Source of the DNA: Escherichia coli
GTDB taxonomy: Bacteria > Pseudomonadota > Gammaproteobacteria > Enterobacterales > Enterobacteriaceae
Assembly (NCBI RefSeq): GCF_016026235.1
Contig: NZ_CP065613.1
DNA length: 64,000 nucleotides
Direction: 5' to 3' (one strand)
In this document: positions 1 through 34,127 of the stretch, piece after piece
How the letters are laid out: the number at the start of each line of letters is the position of its first letter
Numbering within the stretch: the first letter of the stretch is position 1
The notes under the pieces: generated by a model
What the model was told of the DNA's origin: nothing
What the model saw: only the letters and a program-made list of their open reading frames with translations
Databases searched by the model: none
Translations under genes and position numbers: made by a program

Positions 1-113
1 TGCGCACCAGTGTTATTCGTGGATTTAGTGCCGTAATCAAACGACGATGTGGTTTTCGTCCCCAAATCCGTACTGGATGCGCTGGCGCTGTGGGTATGCG
101 ATTTAATGCCGTC
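1..113 (-). other. Distal continuation of stf reading frame after in-frame TAG; runs off the window start
   Basis: Same frame as stf stays open for 37 codons after the TAG at 114-116 and translates [37 protein letters not shown], matching the distal part of lambda Stf as I recall it. Confidence 0.7.
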
Positions 114-2693
114 CTATTCCTGAGACAATACGGCCCGACCACTGGTAGGTTTGCCCTTAATCGTCCAGCCACGCATATCAGGGATCACGCCTGACGGATA
201 AGCCGCTGCAAGTTTCGGGTATGCAGATTTGTCAAAAGTCTGCCCCTGCATCAGGGCATAGCCAGACGGAACGGTATCTGATGGCCACGGGATTGGTGCA
301 CCGACTGGATAAAACTCTGCAGGAGGATGAGCCGAGGTGTAAAGCTGCGCCCACGGCGACCAGTTTGCGTCGGTCGTATCCCGTCGTGAACGAATAAATG
401 CCGGAGCATGAGCACCGCTTGTACCACTCCAGCCGATGAGTAACTCACCTTCGCCAACGGCTGTCATCCCTTTCAGGTGAATGATATTTCCATACGCTGT
501 TGGATATCCGTTGTTATACACCTCGTATAACTCAAGACCTGTTGCCCCCTGCGTATTGTCTGTCAGCGCGGTTACCCGACCTTTTGAAGACAGATTAACT
601 GATGATACTGCTGTTCCACCTGACGGTAACGCCCCGATCTCTGATGCCGTTGGCTTATTTCTGGAGTTATAGTCCCTTCGCCAGCCAGGTGAATAATCTG
701 TTCCGTGATTAATATAGGTAAACTGGGCGTTAGTTGTTCCACCACCAGTGGAGGTGGTCGGTGTGGTAATGCGGATCGTCATCGCTGACTTTATCCCCAT
801 TACTTCAATGACAGCTCCGGCGAGATGAATATTACCGCAGTCAGTATCAGTAATGATTTTATTATTGCCATAAGACCAGGAACCCTTGCACATCCAGTAG
901 GGATGGTTAAATGCTCCCTGAGAATCCAGCCACTCGATAAACTGTGCAGTCGTCCAGTTTCCTGTTATTGTGCTTACTGACCCACCAAAGGCACGGCAGG
1001 CACCAATATTTTTCGTAAAGGTGTCTTTGCCAGGGATATCCGCACCGTTCTGATCTTTCTGCAGACGTTTCTCAGCATTGTCATAGGCTGTTTTTACTGC
1101 CTTTGGTGTCGCGGCAAGCGTTTCAGACGTGCTGTTGGTCGCGCTGCTTAGCTGGATTATCCCTTTCTGTGCTGTCGTTGCATCCTGTGCGGTGTATTTC
1201 CCGTTAGCCAGGTCATACGCGGCCTTAACGGCTTTTGGTGTTGCCGCCAGTGACTCGGAAGTGCTGTTAGTCGCACTACTGAGCTGTACTATCCCCTTTT
1301 TCGTCGTGCTCGCATCCTCAAGCGCCACAGCGGATGCAATATCCTCTGCCCGTTTTGCTGCTGTCTCGGCGCGCGTTGCTGCGGATTCTGCCGTACTCTT
1401 GCTCTGTGCTGCCGCCGTCGCACTGCCAGCAGCCTCTGTTGCCTTCGTGGATGCCGTCGTGGCGCTGCCCTTCGCTGCTGACGCTTGTCTGGTCGCCTCA
1501 TCTTTTGAAGCAGACGCCGATGAGGCCGATGACGCCGCCGAACTGGCGGACGATGCGGCAGCCGTTTTTGAGGATTCTGCGCTGGTTTCCGACGCTTTCG
1601 CGTTCGTTTCGGATGTCTTCGCTGCGGAAGCTGACCTCGCTGCTGCGCTGGCCTGTTCAGTGGCTTCGCCAGCCTTCGTTGTGGCTGTTGAAGCGGATGA
1701 TGCGGCGCTTTCTGCCGATTTTCCGGCGGCGATGGCACTGGCTGAGGCCTGCCCGGCACTTGTTGACGCGGCACTGGCAGACGACGCAGCCGCTGTTTTT
1801 GAGCCTGCCGCAGCTGAGGCGCTCTGTCCCGCTGCCGTCTCAGAAGACCTGGCGTTCGTCTCGGACGTTTTTGCCGCCTTCGCGGAATTTGCTGCCGCCG
1901 TTGCCGAGGAAGCTGCGCTACTGGCGCTCGAGGATGCGTTCGTTTCTGATGATTTTGCCGCCTCTTTTGAAGCCGACGCATCCTGGGCTGAGGTGGCAGC
2001 TTCTGACGCTTTCGTAGTCGCGGTGGATGCAGAAGTGGCTGCTGATTGTTGTGACGCTGCAGCATTCGTTTCTGACGTTTTCGCGGCACTGGCACTGGTA
2101 GCTGCCGCGCTTTTTGAGGACTCTGCAGCGGCAGCACTTTTTGATGCTTCAGTGGCCTTTGCTGATGCCGTTCCTGCGCTGGAAGACGCTGACTGAGCCG
2201 ACGACGCGGCCTGTCCGGCTGACGTGCTGGCTGCGCGTGCTAAGCCTGCAGCATCAGTTGCATGGGTTGCCGCCTCACGGGCTGATGTGCCGGCATCGCT
2301 GGCTGACTTCTTCGCGGCTGCTGTGTTCTGTGCCACCGCGGACGCGTTACGCGCCACCTCTTCCACCATCAGTTCAAAACGTCGCAGTGCCTCCGGACGG
2401 GCATCATCCTCCGTCATGGCACCGAGAAAATCATTCAGCGTACCGGGTTGAGAATCTTCATACACGGTGATGGTCCCGGCATGTGACGGCGGGAATCCTT
2501 CCACCAACAGAATAACGCTGTACTGACCGTACTCAACGTCCATGCTGTAACGCCCGGCTTCATCCGGATTTTCTGAGGCCAGCGTGTTCACCACCACCGC
2601 GGTGCTGTTACGTTTTGCTTTCAGCTGGATTGTGCAGTTCTGTACCGGTTTTCCTGTGCCGTCTTTCAGTACACCTGAAATCTTTACTGCCAT
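114..2693 (-). CDS. stf: Side tail fibre protein (lambda Stf / StfR-like), ending at an in-frame amber codon
   Basis: ORF 114..2735; likely start at the internal Met ([27 protein letters not shown]), which matches the lambda Stf N-terminus; long Ala/Ser/Thr-rich repeat region and conserved [41 protein letters not shown] block. Confidence 0.9.
1150..2200 (-). repeat. Degenerate tandem coding repeats (AAKTSETNA...-type) inside stf
   Basis: Repeated [16 protein letters not shown] motifs in the translation; the GC-rich low-complexity DNA produces long overlapping shadow ORFs in other frames. Confidence 0.6.
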
Positions 2694-2756
2694 ATTCACC
2701 CCACAAAAAGCCCGCCTGAACCAGCGGGCTGTCATAACACTGTGTTACCTGGCTAA

Positions 2757-3356
2757 TCAGAACTTATAACCGACACCCACGATGAAACCGTCAGTGCGCC
2801 AGTCGCCACTGCCGGAACCTTCATAAGCAAGGTCAATGGCCACGGATTCGGTCGGGTTAAACTGCACGCCAGCTCCCCACGCCAGAGACGTGTTGCTGTG
2901 GCGACCGTCATCACTTCCGGTCAGCACGTCGTGCGTTTTCCCCTTGTTGTCAGTTACGCGGAGATAATCCCCGGAGAAAGTCGACACACGGCTGTAAGCC
3001 ATACCCGCCATCGCATACGCGCTGAACCATTCATTCACGCGCACAGACGGCCCCACCATCACGCTGAACCAGCGGTTACGCACGGAATCTTCATGCCAGC
3101 GGGTATCGCTGTAACGGGTAAGCTGGCGATTCTTGTCTCCTGCATAGCTGAATGACGTCACCAGCCCCAGTGTGTCCGTAAACTCATAACGGTATTTCAC
3201 GTTAATCCCGTTAAGATCATCGCTGCCGGGAACGTTCGTCGAGGCATGAAGATACCCCGCGCTCAGCGTGGACTGATGTTCAGATGCCCATGCAGGCGCA
3301 CCGGATACGGCCAGACAAATGGCTGCGGACAAAATGGCGGCATAAAGTTTACGCAT
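2757..3356 (-). CDS. lom: Outer membrane protein Lom (Ail/Lom/PagC family), prophage moron
   Basis: 199 aa with signal peptide; C-terminus [23 protein letters not shown] matches lambda Lom; located between J and stf as in lambda. Confidence 0.9.
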
Positions 3357-3425
3357 AATTACCTCTCGCTTTTCTGCAATAAAAAAGGCACCATTTCTGG
3401 TGCCCTTATATGGGTTATAACAATT

Positions 3426-6838
<3,413 letters not shown>

Positions 6839-29897: not shown

Positions 29898-30515
29898 ATG
29901 ACCACACAATATGGATTTTTTATCGATTCCAGCCGCTGTACTGGCTGTAAAACCTGCGAACTGGCGTGCAAAGATTTTAAAGATCTTGGCCCGGAAGTCA
30001 GTTTCCGCCGTATTTATGAATATGCTGGCGGCGACTGGCAGGAAGATAATGGCGTCTGGCACCAGAACGTGTTCGCTTATTATCTCTCCATCTCCTGTAA
30101 CCATTGCGATGACCCCGCATGTACAAAAGTCTGCCCCAGCGGCGCAATGCATAAGCGTGAAGATGGCTTTGTGGTGGTTGATGAAGATGTTTGTATCGGC
30201 TGCCGCTACTGCCACATGGCTTGTCCGTACGGCGCGCCACAGTACAATGCTGAAAAAGGGCACATGACGAAGTGCGATGGTTGTTATTCGCGCGTCGCCG
30301 AGGGGAAACAACCCATATGCGTCGAATCCTGCCCGCTGCGTGCACTTGAGTTCGGTCCAATTGAAGAGCTGCGCCAGAAGCACGGCACTCTGGCTGCCGT
30401 CGCGCCACTGCCGCGCGCGCATTTCACAAAACCCAATATCGTTATCAAACCTAACGCCAACAGCCGCCCGACCGGCGATACCACTGGTTATCTGGCTAAT
30501 CCGGAGGAAGTGTAA
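29898..30515 (+). CDS. ynfG: 4Fe-4S ferredoxin-type subunit YnfG (DmsB paralog)
   Basis: 205 aa with four Cys clusters (CxxCxxCxxxCP). Confidence 0.9.
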   Translation: MTTQYGFFIDSSRCTGCKTCELACKDFKDLGPEVSFRRIYEYAGGDWQEDNGVWHQNVFAYYLSISCNHCDDPACTKVCPSGAMHKREDGFVVVDEDVCIGCRYCHMACPYGAPQYNAEKGHMTKCDGCYSRVAEGKQPICVESCPLRALEFGPIEELRQKHGTLAAVAPLPRAHFTKPNIVIKPNANSRPTGDTTGYLANPEEV

Positions 30516-30516
30516 A

Positions 30517-31371
30517 ATGGGAAATGGATGGCATGAATGGCCACTGGTTATCTTTACCGTATTGGGTCAATGCGTAGTAGGCGCGCTGATTGTTAGCGGA
30601 ATTGGCTGGTTCGCCGCCAAAAATGACGCAGACCGTCAGCACATTGTTCGTGGCATGTTTTTCCTCTGGCTGTTGATGGGCATCGGGTTTATTGCCTCTG
30701 TCATGCACCTGGGATCGCCACTGCGGGCGTTTAACTCGCTGAATCGAATCGGAGCTTCTGGTCTGAGTAACGAGATTGCTGCCGGTTCCATATTTTTTTC
30801 CGTTGGCGGACTATGGTGGCTGGTGGCGGTCATCGGTAAAATGCCGCAAGCGTTGGGGAAACTCTGGTTACTTGTCAGCATGGCGCTCGGCGTCATTTTC
30901 GTCTGGATGATGACCTGCGTGTATCAAATCGACACTGTGCCAACCTGGCATAACGGTTACACTACGCTGGCTTTCTTCCTGACGGTATTGTTGAGTGGTC
31001 CAATACTTGCTGCCGCAATTCTGCGGGCAGCCCGCGTTACATTTAATACCACACCATTTGCCATCATTAGCGTTCTGGCGCTGATCGCTTGTGCCGGGGT
31101 GATTGTGCTGCAAGGTTTGTCTCTGTCGTCTATTCACTCATCCGTGCAACAAGCCAGCGCACTGGTACCAGATTACGCCTCCTTACAGGTCTGGCGTGTG
31201 GTATTGTTATGCGCAGGTCTAGGATGCTGGCTTTGTCCGCTCATACGTCGCCGTGAACCTCACGTTGCCGGACTTATTCTGGGGCTAATCCTCATACTTG
31301 GCGGTGAGATGATCGGGCGTGTGCTCTTTTATGGCCTGCACATGACGGTAGGAATGGCTATTGCAGGTTAA
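30517..31371 (+). CDS. ynfH: Membrane anchor subunit YnfH (DmsC paralog)
   Basis: 284 aa, polytopic membrane protein; ATG one base after the ynfG stop. Confidence 0.85.
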   Translation: MGNGWHEWPLVIFTVLGQCVVGALIVSGIGWFAAKNDADRQHIVRGMFFLWLLMGIGFIASVMHLGSPLRAFNSLNRIGASGLSNEIAAGSIFFSVGGLWWLVAVIGKMPQALGKLWLLVSMALGVIFVWMMTCVYQIDTVPTWHNGYTTLAFFLTVLLSGPILAAAILRAARVTFNTTPFAIISVLALIACAGVIVLQGLSLSSIHSSVQQASALVPDYASLQVWRVVLLCAGLGCWLCPLIRRREPHVAGLILGLILILGGEMIGRVLFYGLHMTVGMAIAG

Positions 31372-31413
31372 CAAATTAGTGCGGGGCAACCCGCACATTT
31401 CGGGATGTTAGGA

Positions 31414-32028
31414 ATGACCCATTTTTCACAGCAAGATAATTTTTCTGTTGCGGCGCGCGTGTTGGGCGCGCTGTTTTATTACGCTCCAGAGAGTGCTGAA
31501 GCCGCACCTCTGGTTGCGGTACTCACCCGTGACGGCTGGGAAACTCAGTGGCCTCTACCAGAAGCGTCATTAGCGCCGCTGGTGACGGCTTTTCAGACAC
31601 AGTGTGAAGAGACTCACGCCCAGGCCTGGCAGCGTTTGTTTGTCGGCCCGTGGGCACTGCCGTCTCCGCCGTGGGGGTCGGTCTGGCTGGATCGCGAATC
31701 TGTGCTGTTTGGCGATTCAACATTGGCACTTCGTCAGTGGATGCGCGAGAAAGGCATTCAGTTTGAAATGAAGCAAAACGAACCGGAAGATCATTTTGGT
31801 TCACTGCTGTTGATGGCTGCGTGGTTGGCGGAGAATGGTCGCCAGACAGAATGCGAAGAATTGCTGGCATGGCACCTTTTTCCGTGGTCAACACGTTTTC
31901 TTGACGTTTTTATCGAAAAAGCAGAACACCCTTTCTACCGTGCACTGGGTGAACTGGCTCGCTTAACGCTGGCGCAATGGCAATCACAACTGTTAATTCC
32001 TGTCGCGGTTAAACCACTCTTTCGATAG
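31414..32028 (+). CDS. dmsD: Tat proofreading chaperone DmsD
   Basis: 204 aa, MTHFSQQDNFSVAARVLGALFYY... Confidence 0.9.
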   Translation: MTHFSQQDNFSVAARVLGALFYYAPESAEAAPLVAVLTRDGWETQWPLPEASLAPLVTAFQTQCEETHAQAWQRLFVGPWALPSPPWGSVWLDRESVLFGDSTLALRQWMREKGIQFEMKQNEPEDHFGSLLLMAAWLAENGRQTECEELLAWHLFPWSTRFLDVFIEKAEHPFYRALGELARLTLAQWQSQLLIPVAVKPLFR

Positions 32029-32222
32029 GATCACCGTAATATTGCCGGATGGTGACGATTACGCGCGATTCGGCAATAATACGTTACAGTGTCACGTTTT
32101 TTTATCTCTTAAAGCACGCACTGCTTTTGCGGCTGGCCTCTTTTGCCGCAAAATAGTCGCCCGTGTTTCATTGCCCATTTCTGCTCATGCATCATCTACA
32201 CATCTATCCGGATCTGCGCACT

Positions 32223-33479
32223 ATGTTCCGCCGTCTGCTTATCGCAACAGTCGTCGGTATTCTCGCGGCCTTTGCCGTTGCCGGGTTTCGTCATGCGATG
32301 CTGCTACTGGAGTGGTTGTTCCTCAATAATGACTCGGGCAGTCTGGTCAATGCAGCGACAAATCTTTCCCCGTGGCGACGGCTGCTAACTCCGGCGCTCG
32401 GCGGACTGGCGGCGGGTTTGTTGCTGATGGGCTGGCAGAAATTTACCCAGCAACGCCCTCATGCGCCGACCGATTATATGGAAGCGTTGCAAACCGAGGG
32501 TCAGTTTGATTACGCAGCAAGCCTGGTTAAATCGCTTGCCTCTCTGCTGGTAGTAACCAGCGGTAGTGCAATTGGTCGCGAAGGTGCGATGATTCTTTTA
32601 GCTGCCCTTGCCGCCTCCTGTTTTGCCCAACGTTTTACGCCACGCCAGGAGTGGAAATTATGGATCGCCTGTGGGGCCGCGGCGGGAATGGCTGCAGCCT
32701 ATCGCGCCCCGCTTGCTGGCAGTTTATTTATAGCCGAAGTGCTGTTTGGCACTATGATGTTGGCCTCTCTCGGCCCGGTGATTATTTCCGCCGTCGTGGC
32801 ATTGCTGGTTAGCAATCTGATTAATCATAGCGACGCGTTACTCTACAGCGTACAACTCTCAGTGACGGTTCAGGCTCGTGACTATGCGCTGATTATCAGT
32901 ACAGGTGTGCTGGCAGGTCTGTGCGGACCACTGTTGTTAACGTTAATGAACGCCTGTCATCGTGGATTTGTGAGTCTCAAACTTGCGCCGCCCTGGCAAC
33001 TGGCACTAGGCGGGTTGATCGTGGGTTTGCTTTCCCTGTTCACACCTGCAGTGTGGGGCAACGGCTATAGCACCGTACAATCCTTTTTAACCGCCCCGCC
33101 ACTGTTAATGATCATTGCCGGGATCTTCCTTTGTAAACTGTGTGCCGTGCTGGCGAGTAGCGGTTCCGGCGCACCCGGTGGTGTCTTTACACCGACGCTA
33201 TTTATCGGTCTTGCCATTGGCATGTTGTATGGTCGTAGCCTAGGATTATGGTTCCCTGATGGCGAAGAAATTACGCTTTTACTCGGATTGACCGGGATGG
33301 CGACACTGTTGGCGGCAACCACGCACGCGCCGATTATGTCGACGTTGATGATATGTGAAATGACCGGGGAGTATCAGCTACTCCCCGGTTTATTGATTGC
33401 CTGCGTAATTGCGTCGGTAATCTCGCGGACGTTACACCGTGACTCTATCTACCGCCAGCACACTGCGCAGCATAGCTAA
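32223..33479 (+). CDS. clcB: ClC-family voltage-gated chloride channel
   Basis: 418 aa from [22 protein letters not shown]-like / GREG selectivity motifs. Confidence 0.9.
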
Positions 33480-34127
33480 GCGGATGTATTGCCCCAGTTC
33501 ACGCTGTTCGGCGCGCGGCAGATAAGGCAGTTCACCAATGAGCGGTGCCGGAAGTTTTTTACCGAGCACATCAATGATTTCCGCATAATGCGCCAGTCCT
33601 GGGTTGATTCGGTTAGCCACCCAGCCAATGAGCGGCAGCCCGTCGTTGGCAATCGCCTGAGCTGTTAGCAGTGCATGGTTAATGCAACCTTCCTGAATAC
33701 CGACAACCATCAACACCGGCAGTTGTTCCTGCACCACCCATTCAGAGAGTGGACGCAAATCATTCATCAGACTGCGCCAGCCGCCAGTCCCTTCTACCAC
33801 GACATGATCGACTTTTTCGGTCAGGTTTGCCAGGCCGTTTGAAATGAGGGTGTAATTGATTGGGCAACTGTGCGCCACGCTACTTTCTTCTTCGCTTAAC
33901 GCGATAGGATTAACTGCTTCATAAGGCAGTTCGATGGTTGAAACACTCTGCAACACCAGGGCATCTTTATTACGCAGCCCTTCGGGTGTCTCTTTGCTCC
34001 CCTTCGCTACGGGTTTATATCCCGCAACCGTTTTTCCCTGGGAGGCTAACGCTTGTAGCAATGCGCGGGAAACCACCGTTTTCCCTACAGAAGTGTCTGT
34101 ACCGGTAATAAAGAAACGTTTCAGCAT
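33432..34127 (-). CDS. bioD2: Dethiobiotin synthetase paralog (BioD2 / YnfK)
   Basis: P-loop GTDTSVGKT; 231 aa from MLKRFFITG. Confidence 0.85.

Follow-up and report, generated by a model that had tools for sequence, protein, structure and literature searches.

We found that the Ala/Ser/Thr-rich block of a side tail fibre gene (stf) in an Escherichia coli prophage is very probably the proximal shaft of a lambda-type side tail fibre, folded as a coiled coil and encoded by one long, strictly phased array of heptads. The gene lies at the edge of a stretch of 64,000 nucleotides of contig NZ_CP065613.1 (assembly GCF_016026235.1), referred to here as the window. The feature is real and strongly non-random, yet it is ordinary and already known: earlier publications have described the "PCoil" shaft as a heptad domain, as a trimeric coiled coil and as varying in length by multiples of seven. 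By descent the gene is a lambda-type side tail fibre gene of the PfN-PCoil Stf family, but it is truncated; the family's Ala/Ser-rich heptad region is present directly behind the PfN domain, and a complete frame reaching the receptor-binding tip is absent, as the frame meets a TAG at 114-116. The heptad shaft explains the spurious ORF calls and odd annotations that stf attracts, and its exact in-register boundaries are useful for the engineering of Stf chimeras or of fibre length.

The gene order J - lom - stf is present in the window, with J at 3426-6835, lom at 2757-3356 and stf at 1-2693. The stf frame starts with an ATG at 2693 and, beyond the premature stop, is open from 113 to position 1, where the window edge cuts the gene. 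The tfa gene lies outside the window; it follows the near-identical stf of phage mEp460_ev081 and of the SCU-316 prophage. The parts of the gene are as follows.

114..2693, minus strand: stf frame up to the premature stop, 859 codons plus TAG
2292..2693, minus strand: PfN N-terminal domain (Pfam PF08400), aa 1-134, full profile at E = 2.4e-71
1323..2360, minus strand: heptad PCoil shaft, very probably a coiled coil, aa 112-457, 346 residues or ~49 heptads
1599..2087, minus strand: span of four AAK(T/S)SETNA motifs, two of which mark the end points of 28-aa and 112-aa deletions
1471..1785, minus strand: 315 nt (105 aa, 15 heptads) absent from lambda Stf, a single in-register alignment gap
1056..1310, minus strand: two 44-aa Phage_fiber_2 (Pf2) repeats, PF03406, from Pfam and as a DNA repeat family
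606..1082, minus strand: domain like the phage Mu tail fibre protein S/S', aa 538-696, matching 8ju3_A at E = 5e-85
159..302, minus strand: phage tail collar domain PF07484, aa 798-845, from Pfam, followed by a T4 gp37-like tip
114..116, minus strand: in-frame amber TAG, codon 860, which is CAG (Gln) in mEp460_ev081, PhiR26_1 and lambda
24..41, minus strand: FDYGTK motif, one copy, downstream of the amber codon

The PfN domain is the part that attaches the fibre to the tail tip, and aa 1-94 match the lambda Stf chains in PDB 9e7m and 9mgh (1.3e-51 to the PDB chain). At the other end, the start of the gp37-like tip matches PDB 2xgf_A (E = 1.1e-29). The shaft lies between the tail-tip-docking PfN domain and a set of distal modules, namely the two Pf2 repeats, the Mu S-like domain, the collar and the gp37-like tip. 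An earlier model-made description of this DNA, based on the letters and their open reading frames (the sequence-only reading), had put the block at 1150-2200. An Ala/Ser/Thr-rich block does exist there, but its true span is 1323-2360, and the part from 1150 to ~1320 consists of Pf2 repeats, the two DNA copies of which (1080-1186 and 1212-1318) are 72% identical.

Ala, Ser and Thr together make up 70-78% of the block. The term "low-complexity" used by the sequence-only reading misses that the block is a strictly phased heptad array and very probably a coiled coil. Residue identity was 0.38-0.43 at all multiples of 7 up to 63 (0.43 at lag 7) against 0.16-0.26, or ~0.2, at other lags, and the autocorrelation reached z = 7-10 at all nine of these multiples relative to 500 shuffles; the claim that the block is repetitive is therefore confirmed. 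Written in rows of seven, the block yields the consensus (T/S)-S-A-(S/T)-x-A-x, with Ala at position 6 in 47 of 48 rows, Ala at position 3 in 35 of 49 and Ser at position 2 in 36 of 49. A phase-tracking Viterbi model described the array as a single segment of 346 residues (aa 112-457) with zero register shifts. The repeat unit had been proposed to be the nine-residue AAKTSETNA. This motif, as AAK(T/S)SETNA, was indeed encountered four times, at aa 203, 245, 273 and 357 (window 2061-2087, 1935-1961, 1851-1877 and 1599-1625), but the copies are not in tandem, and the unit is the heptad; the spacings between motifs (42, 28 and 84 aa) are all multiples of 7.

On the residue pattern, heptads with small residues at positions 3 and 6 are the signature of an Ala-core alpha-helical coiled coil. 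Small residues would fill the core, with Ala at positions 3 and 6 and Ser flanking them from position 2. Large hydrophobic residues (Leu, Ile, Val) are almost absent from the a/d core, the periodic positions being Ala and Ser, which is unusual for a coiled coil. Heptad coiled coils with Ala or other small residues in place of core Leu, Ile and Val are known elsewhere: an alanine zipper forms the C-terminal half of Braun's lipoprotein Lpp-56, and the Ala-rich coiled-coil silks of bees and ants are a further case. Both are unrelated to Stf in sequence and function. An AlphaFold2 model of the monomer, built on a 35-sequence alignment and used at full length for secondary structure only, placed helices at residues 101-319 and 337-455 with pLDDT 70-86, separated by a break at 320-336 where pLDDT falls below 50 and the chain folds back on itself. 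A similar AlphaFold fold-back of full-length lambda Stf has been reported, at odds with tomograms (PMC12617516).

The experimental literature on homologues agrees with a coiled-coil shaft. The low-complexity region behind PfN was named the PCoil domain by Ghosh et al. (2012; PMC3368898), who found it by experiment to be trimeric and alpha-helical, remarked on its atypical small-residue core, and observed that PCoils vary in length by multiples of seven. In the same study, CD, SEC-MALLS and EM of a homologous PfN-PCoil fragment showed a rod, and the published CD of the O157 homologue shows a cooperative alpha-helical melting transition. More recently, the side fibre of Ur-lambda was described as three Stf chains, each with a proximal coiled coil (102-393) that follows an N-domain (1-91) and a linker (92-101) and precedes a hinge and a distal domain, with cryo-ET of the fibres showing a rod (2025; PMC12617516). 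By analogy with lambda and EPclA, from which the trimeric state is taken, three Stf chains are expected to form a parallel alpha-helical coiled coil here also.

It might be argued instead that the block is an intrinsically disordered linker, rich in Ala, Ser and Thr, whose repeats are compositional noise. The skewed composition would fit such a linker, as would the lack of any Pfam model or solved structure over aa 135-460 and the confused public annotations of homologues ("PPE-repeat protein", "short-chain fatty acid transporter"). We nonetheless consider disorder highly unlikely, given the strict heptad phase over the whole array, homologue indels that fall mostly in register, the helix predicted by AlphaFold2, and the rod seen in homologues by CD, SEC-MALLS, EM and cryo-ET.

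On the DNA, Tandem Repeats Finder (TRF) reported no tandem array in the block, only three trivial rows of 1.9-2.8 copies with periods of 9-15, and a seed-based repeat search recovered just degenerate families, at spacings of multiples of 21 nt. Exact direct repeats within the block reach 13 nt at most, and heptads compared in register share only 0.40-0.48 of their nucleotides. Ala at position 6 is encoded by all four of its codons and Ser at position 2 by all six, from both the TCN and the AGY box. Taken together, the low identity between heptads and the full use of synonymous codons show that the periodicity is held by selection at the protein level and does not stem from recent duplication of DNA. 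The alternative, that the block is a 21-nt VNTR or contingency locus subject to frequent slippage, with the protein periodicity a passive result, could draw on the spacing of the longest exact DNA repeats (all multiples of 21 nt), on the existence of several length alleles and on deletion sizes that in some cases match repeat spacings. It is very improbable in view of the missing array, the 40-48% identity between units, the use of Ser codon boxes that are not interconvertible, and a single length class that dominates the measurable homologous loci (below) at 95-99% identity.

To compare lengths, we measured the block from anchor to anchor, between two conserved peptide anchors, in homologues taken from the best 80 or 120 matches listed, which are biased towards close relatives. 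The anchor-to-anchor length is 330 aa in the window, in mEp460_ev081 and in PhiR26_1, and 225 aa in lambda. The best 80 IMG/VR loci with a PfN domain gave the following distribution.

330 aa: 51 of the 60 measurable loci
225 aa: 6 loci
316, 218 and 110 aa: 1 locus each
second anchor not found: 23 loci, with another continuation after a shorter array or with the locus ending first

Repeat number, and hence possibly fibre length, does therefore differ between homologues, as the sequence-only reading had supposed; it had named a lack of internal repetition and an identical repeat number in all homologues as the outcomes that would speak against it, and what we found was a clearly repetitive block in several lengths. 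Close protein homologues showed 12 distinct indels. Seven have lengths divisible by 7 (binomial P = 5e-4 for at least 7 of 12), namely 14 aa and 28 aa, each at two sites, 105 aa at no fewer than two sites, and 112 aa. The other five measure 3, 18, 29, 30 and 220 aa, and partial proteins of draft assemblies are the source of several. Across representatives at 50% identity, the phase model delimited heptad segments of ~11 to 346 residues, no other single segment being as long as the 346-residue array that the window shares with its nearest relatives. The Pf2 repeat is a second length-variable module: alleles with the same heptad block carry between 1 and 3 copies of it. Arrays of the heptad type were also seen behind other N-termini, and in giant proteins of 2.5-4.4 thousand aa they are repeated many times over.

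How the length alleles arise may be read in part from their end points. Both ends of the 28-aa and of the 112-aa deletion allele fall at AAK(S/T)SETNA motifs. Of the six longest exact repeats, three (of 13, 11 and 11 nt) have copies spaced 315, 336 and 84 nt apart, distances that are also deletion sizes. The alleles could be the products of rare deletion or insertion, by illegitimate recombination or slippage, between short direct repeats that lie in register, with products that preserve the heptad phase being preferentially kept. As the best-resolved deletion junctions show microhomology or ambiguity of only 2-8 nt, we infer this mechanism rather than demonstrate it. The same junctions do not bear out the stricter idea that deletions took place exactly inside the longest exact repeats, even though the sizes fit three of the six. 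We rejected a 15-heptad super-unit as the source of the recurrent 105-aa indels, since identity at lag 105 (39-41%) does not exceed that at other in-register lags. The sequence-only reading had called the repeats recombination-prone. At least two deletion alleles ending at the nonapeptide motif lend this some substance, but with heptads that are 40-48% identical and one dominant length class the claim is weak, the repeats being too short for RecA-type recombination. The findings do not match a hypervariable locus, and the block's proneness to recombination is modest.

The heptad count would set the length of the shaft, which we estimate (not a measured value), from 0.1485 nm per residue, at ~51 nm here and ~36 nm in lambda. 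It is conceivable, though rather unlikely, that shaft length is a selected, host-matched trait, with in-register deletions between AAK(T/S)SETNA and similar short repeats giving a few lengths between ~36 and ~51 nm. If this were true, shaft lengths would tune the reach of the receptor-binding tip through O-antigen or capsule layers of differing thickness.

The block also carries three long open reading frames in other frames, which had been pointed out before and which we found at the coordinates given.

1129..2196, plus strand: antisense shadow ORF, 355 aa, in the frame relation of orf206b as annotated in lambda
1289..2137, minus strand: same-strand shadow ORF in the +1 frame, 282 aa, a compositional by-product
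1334..2017, plus strand: antisense shadow ORF, 227 aa, somewhat more open than synonymous shuffles predict

The sequence-only reading ascribed them to composition, and shuffling of synonymous codons supports this. The same-strand +1 frame has 316 stop-free codons, compared with 331 +/- 57 in the shuffles, and the antisense frame of 1129-2196 has 369 against 245 +/- 87 (P = 0.11). The frame of 1334-2017 stands apart, with 2 stops where synonymous shuffling within the block predicts 8.6 +/- 2.4 (P = 0.0015); the depletion recurs in homologues, which are not independent of one another. A stop in this frame requires CT|A across a codon junction on the sense strand. This junction is under-represented in general: its observed/expected ratio is 0.72 across 28 further long ORFs of the window and at most ~0.4 in two other tail-region ORFs, and with a correction for it the depletion becomes marginal (P ~0.05, Poisson estimate). 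We therefore treat the openness of 1334-2017 as compositional, arising largely from a general avoidance of CT|A, and the long ORFs in other frames would be side effects of a sequence rich in GCN, TCN and ACN codons. That one of them (the antisense 1334-2017, or the orf206b-like 1129-2196) is a real overlapping gene is extremely unlikely: the lambda reference does annotate an antisense orf206b whose place and frame are those of 1129-2196, and the stop depletion would point the same way, but the other two frames fit the shuffle expectation, CT|A avoidance largely accounts for the depletion, and a Pfam scan of the three translations gave zero matches.

Among known systems, lambda Stf is like the window protein in its position after J and lom, its PfN N-terminus, its heptad consensus, its Pf2 repeat, its collar and its gp37-like tip. 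It differs in a shaft that is 15 heptads (105 aa) shorter, in having one Pf2 repeat rather than two, and in having its own middle region where the window protein has the Mu S-like domain; only 46% of the query can be aligned with lambda, at 87% identity. The presence of a Mu S-like domain that lambda Stf lacks indicates that the gene is a mosaic. The stf of lambda PaPa is broken as well, by a frameshift, whereas the window copy is broken by an amber stop. The FDYGTK motif occurs twice in lambda and once in the window, so the earlier count of one copy fewer than lambda was correct, but the motif falls outside the range given (1150-2200): it lies at 24-41, downstream of the in-frame stop. A single copy is the common state, found in 45 of the 47 loci with this junction, and it is the two copies of lambda that are unusual.

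The O157 proteins EPclA and EPclB resemble the window protein in having PfN followed by an Ala/Ser-rich heptad region of the Ala-x-x-Ala/Ser-x-x-Ser type (PMC3368898). Their PCoil is shorter, ending at about residue 245, whereas the coil of the window is much longer, and a collagen triple helix and a PfC domain follow it in EPclA/EPclB, whereas the window protein is without a collagen region. The closest relatives are phage mEp460_ev081 (LR597641.1), whose stf-lom stretch is 99.0% identical in DNA over window 1-2800, and the SCU-316 prophage (NZ_CP054371.1), which is 99.3% identical over window 1-3400, provides the best stf match in complete genomes and resides at the Qin site (ydfJ-ynfT-ydfK-pinQ-tfaQ). 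Both carry essentially the same Stf allele as the window, and the alignment with SCU-316 is free of indels in stf. They differ in that their stf is intact (1023 aa) and then followed by tfa, whereas the window copy has TAG at codon 860. Farther along, window 30000-34000 matches E. coli FDAARGOS_943 at 100% identity, but this strain lacks a prophage at the colinear position.

The amber codon of stf had been overlooked in the sequence-only reading. It costs Stf the T4 gp37-like receptor-binding tip, made up of the last 164 aa, and position 116 is the sole mismatch to SCU-316 across window 1-1983. A 24-nt pattern with TAG had 0 matches in IMG/VR (2.9 million viral contigs), compared with at least 120 for the same pattern with CAG, and an exact-protein look-up of the truncated 859-aa product gave no record. 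The stf gene of this prophage is thus a fresh pseudogene, in which a C-to-T change placed the amber codon before the part that encodes the receptor-binding tip. The adjacent J has lost 1 nt near 4028, and the resulting frameshift leaves ORFs of 948 and 171 aa. Together, the amber codon in stf and the frameshift in J show that both adsorption proteins of the prophage have been inactivated.

Both adsorption proteins of the prophage, the lambda-type side tail fibre Stf and the tail-tip protein J, are broken, since stf carries an amber codon and J is split. Codon 860 of stf (window 114-116, minus strand) is an in-frame TAG, where every relative compared has CAG (Gln), and this change is the sole mismatch between window 1-1983 and the Qin-site prophage of E. 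coli SCU-316. The TAG version of the pattern around this codon had no match in IMG/VR, against at least 120 matches there for the wild-type (CAG) pattern. A Gln-inserting supE suppressor would give back the exact wild-type residue at this position. In J (window 3426-6835), a 1-nt deletion relative to SCU-316 leaves open reading frames of 948 aa and 171 aa:

Near 4028: J frame break, frame switch between LKRLTAP and TITSGG.

Beyond the prophage, the chromosomal flank ynfG-ynfH-dmsD-clcB (window 30000-34000) is 100% identical to that of E. coli FDAARGOS_943, in which no prophage lies at the colinear position.

The window stf has a mosaic make-up, with modules that are lambda-like, Mu-like and T4 gp37-like. 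Its middle part (606-1082) shows homology to S/S', a tail fibre protein of phage Mu (PDB 8ju3, E = 5e-85), and none to the corresponding part of lambda Stf. Lambda Stf also differs in having one Phage_fiber_2 copy, compared with two in the window:

1056-1310, minus strand: two Phage_fiber_2 repeats of 44 aa each, 72% DNA identity between copies.

Among homologues that share the 330-aa heptad block (the Ala/Ser/Thr-rich coiled-coil shaft), the number of Phage_fiber_2 copies is 1, 2 or 3; these repeats are therefore a second length-variable module of Stf. Ala/Ser heptad segments of the Stf type also occur in seven giant proteins (P0196, P0205, P0208, P0216, P0225, P0248 and P0260) that are 2,500-4,400 aa long and come from public metagenome or genome data, each with at least four separate segments, of up to 207 residues per segment, and with other domains intervening between them.

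The antisense frame at 1334-2017 (plus strand), which overlaps stf, is depleted of stops (2, against 8.6 in synonymous shuffles), and this depletion recurs consistently across the homologous loci L001-L083. It arises because CTA split across a codon junction (CT before, A after) is avoided, and more strongly so in stf, where observed/expected ratios are 0.23-0.36, than in 28 other long open reading frames of the window (0.72).

Some Stf homologues (P0090, P0095) are labelled "PPE-repeat protein" or "short-chain fatty acid transporter" in public records, labels that are probably annotation errors due to the low-complexity block. Many of the homologues among the matches listed are "partial" proteins at the end of a contig; short-read assemblies therefore seem to break within or close to stf.
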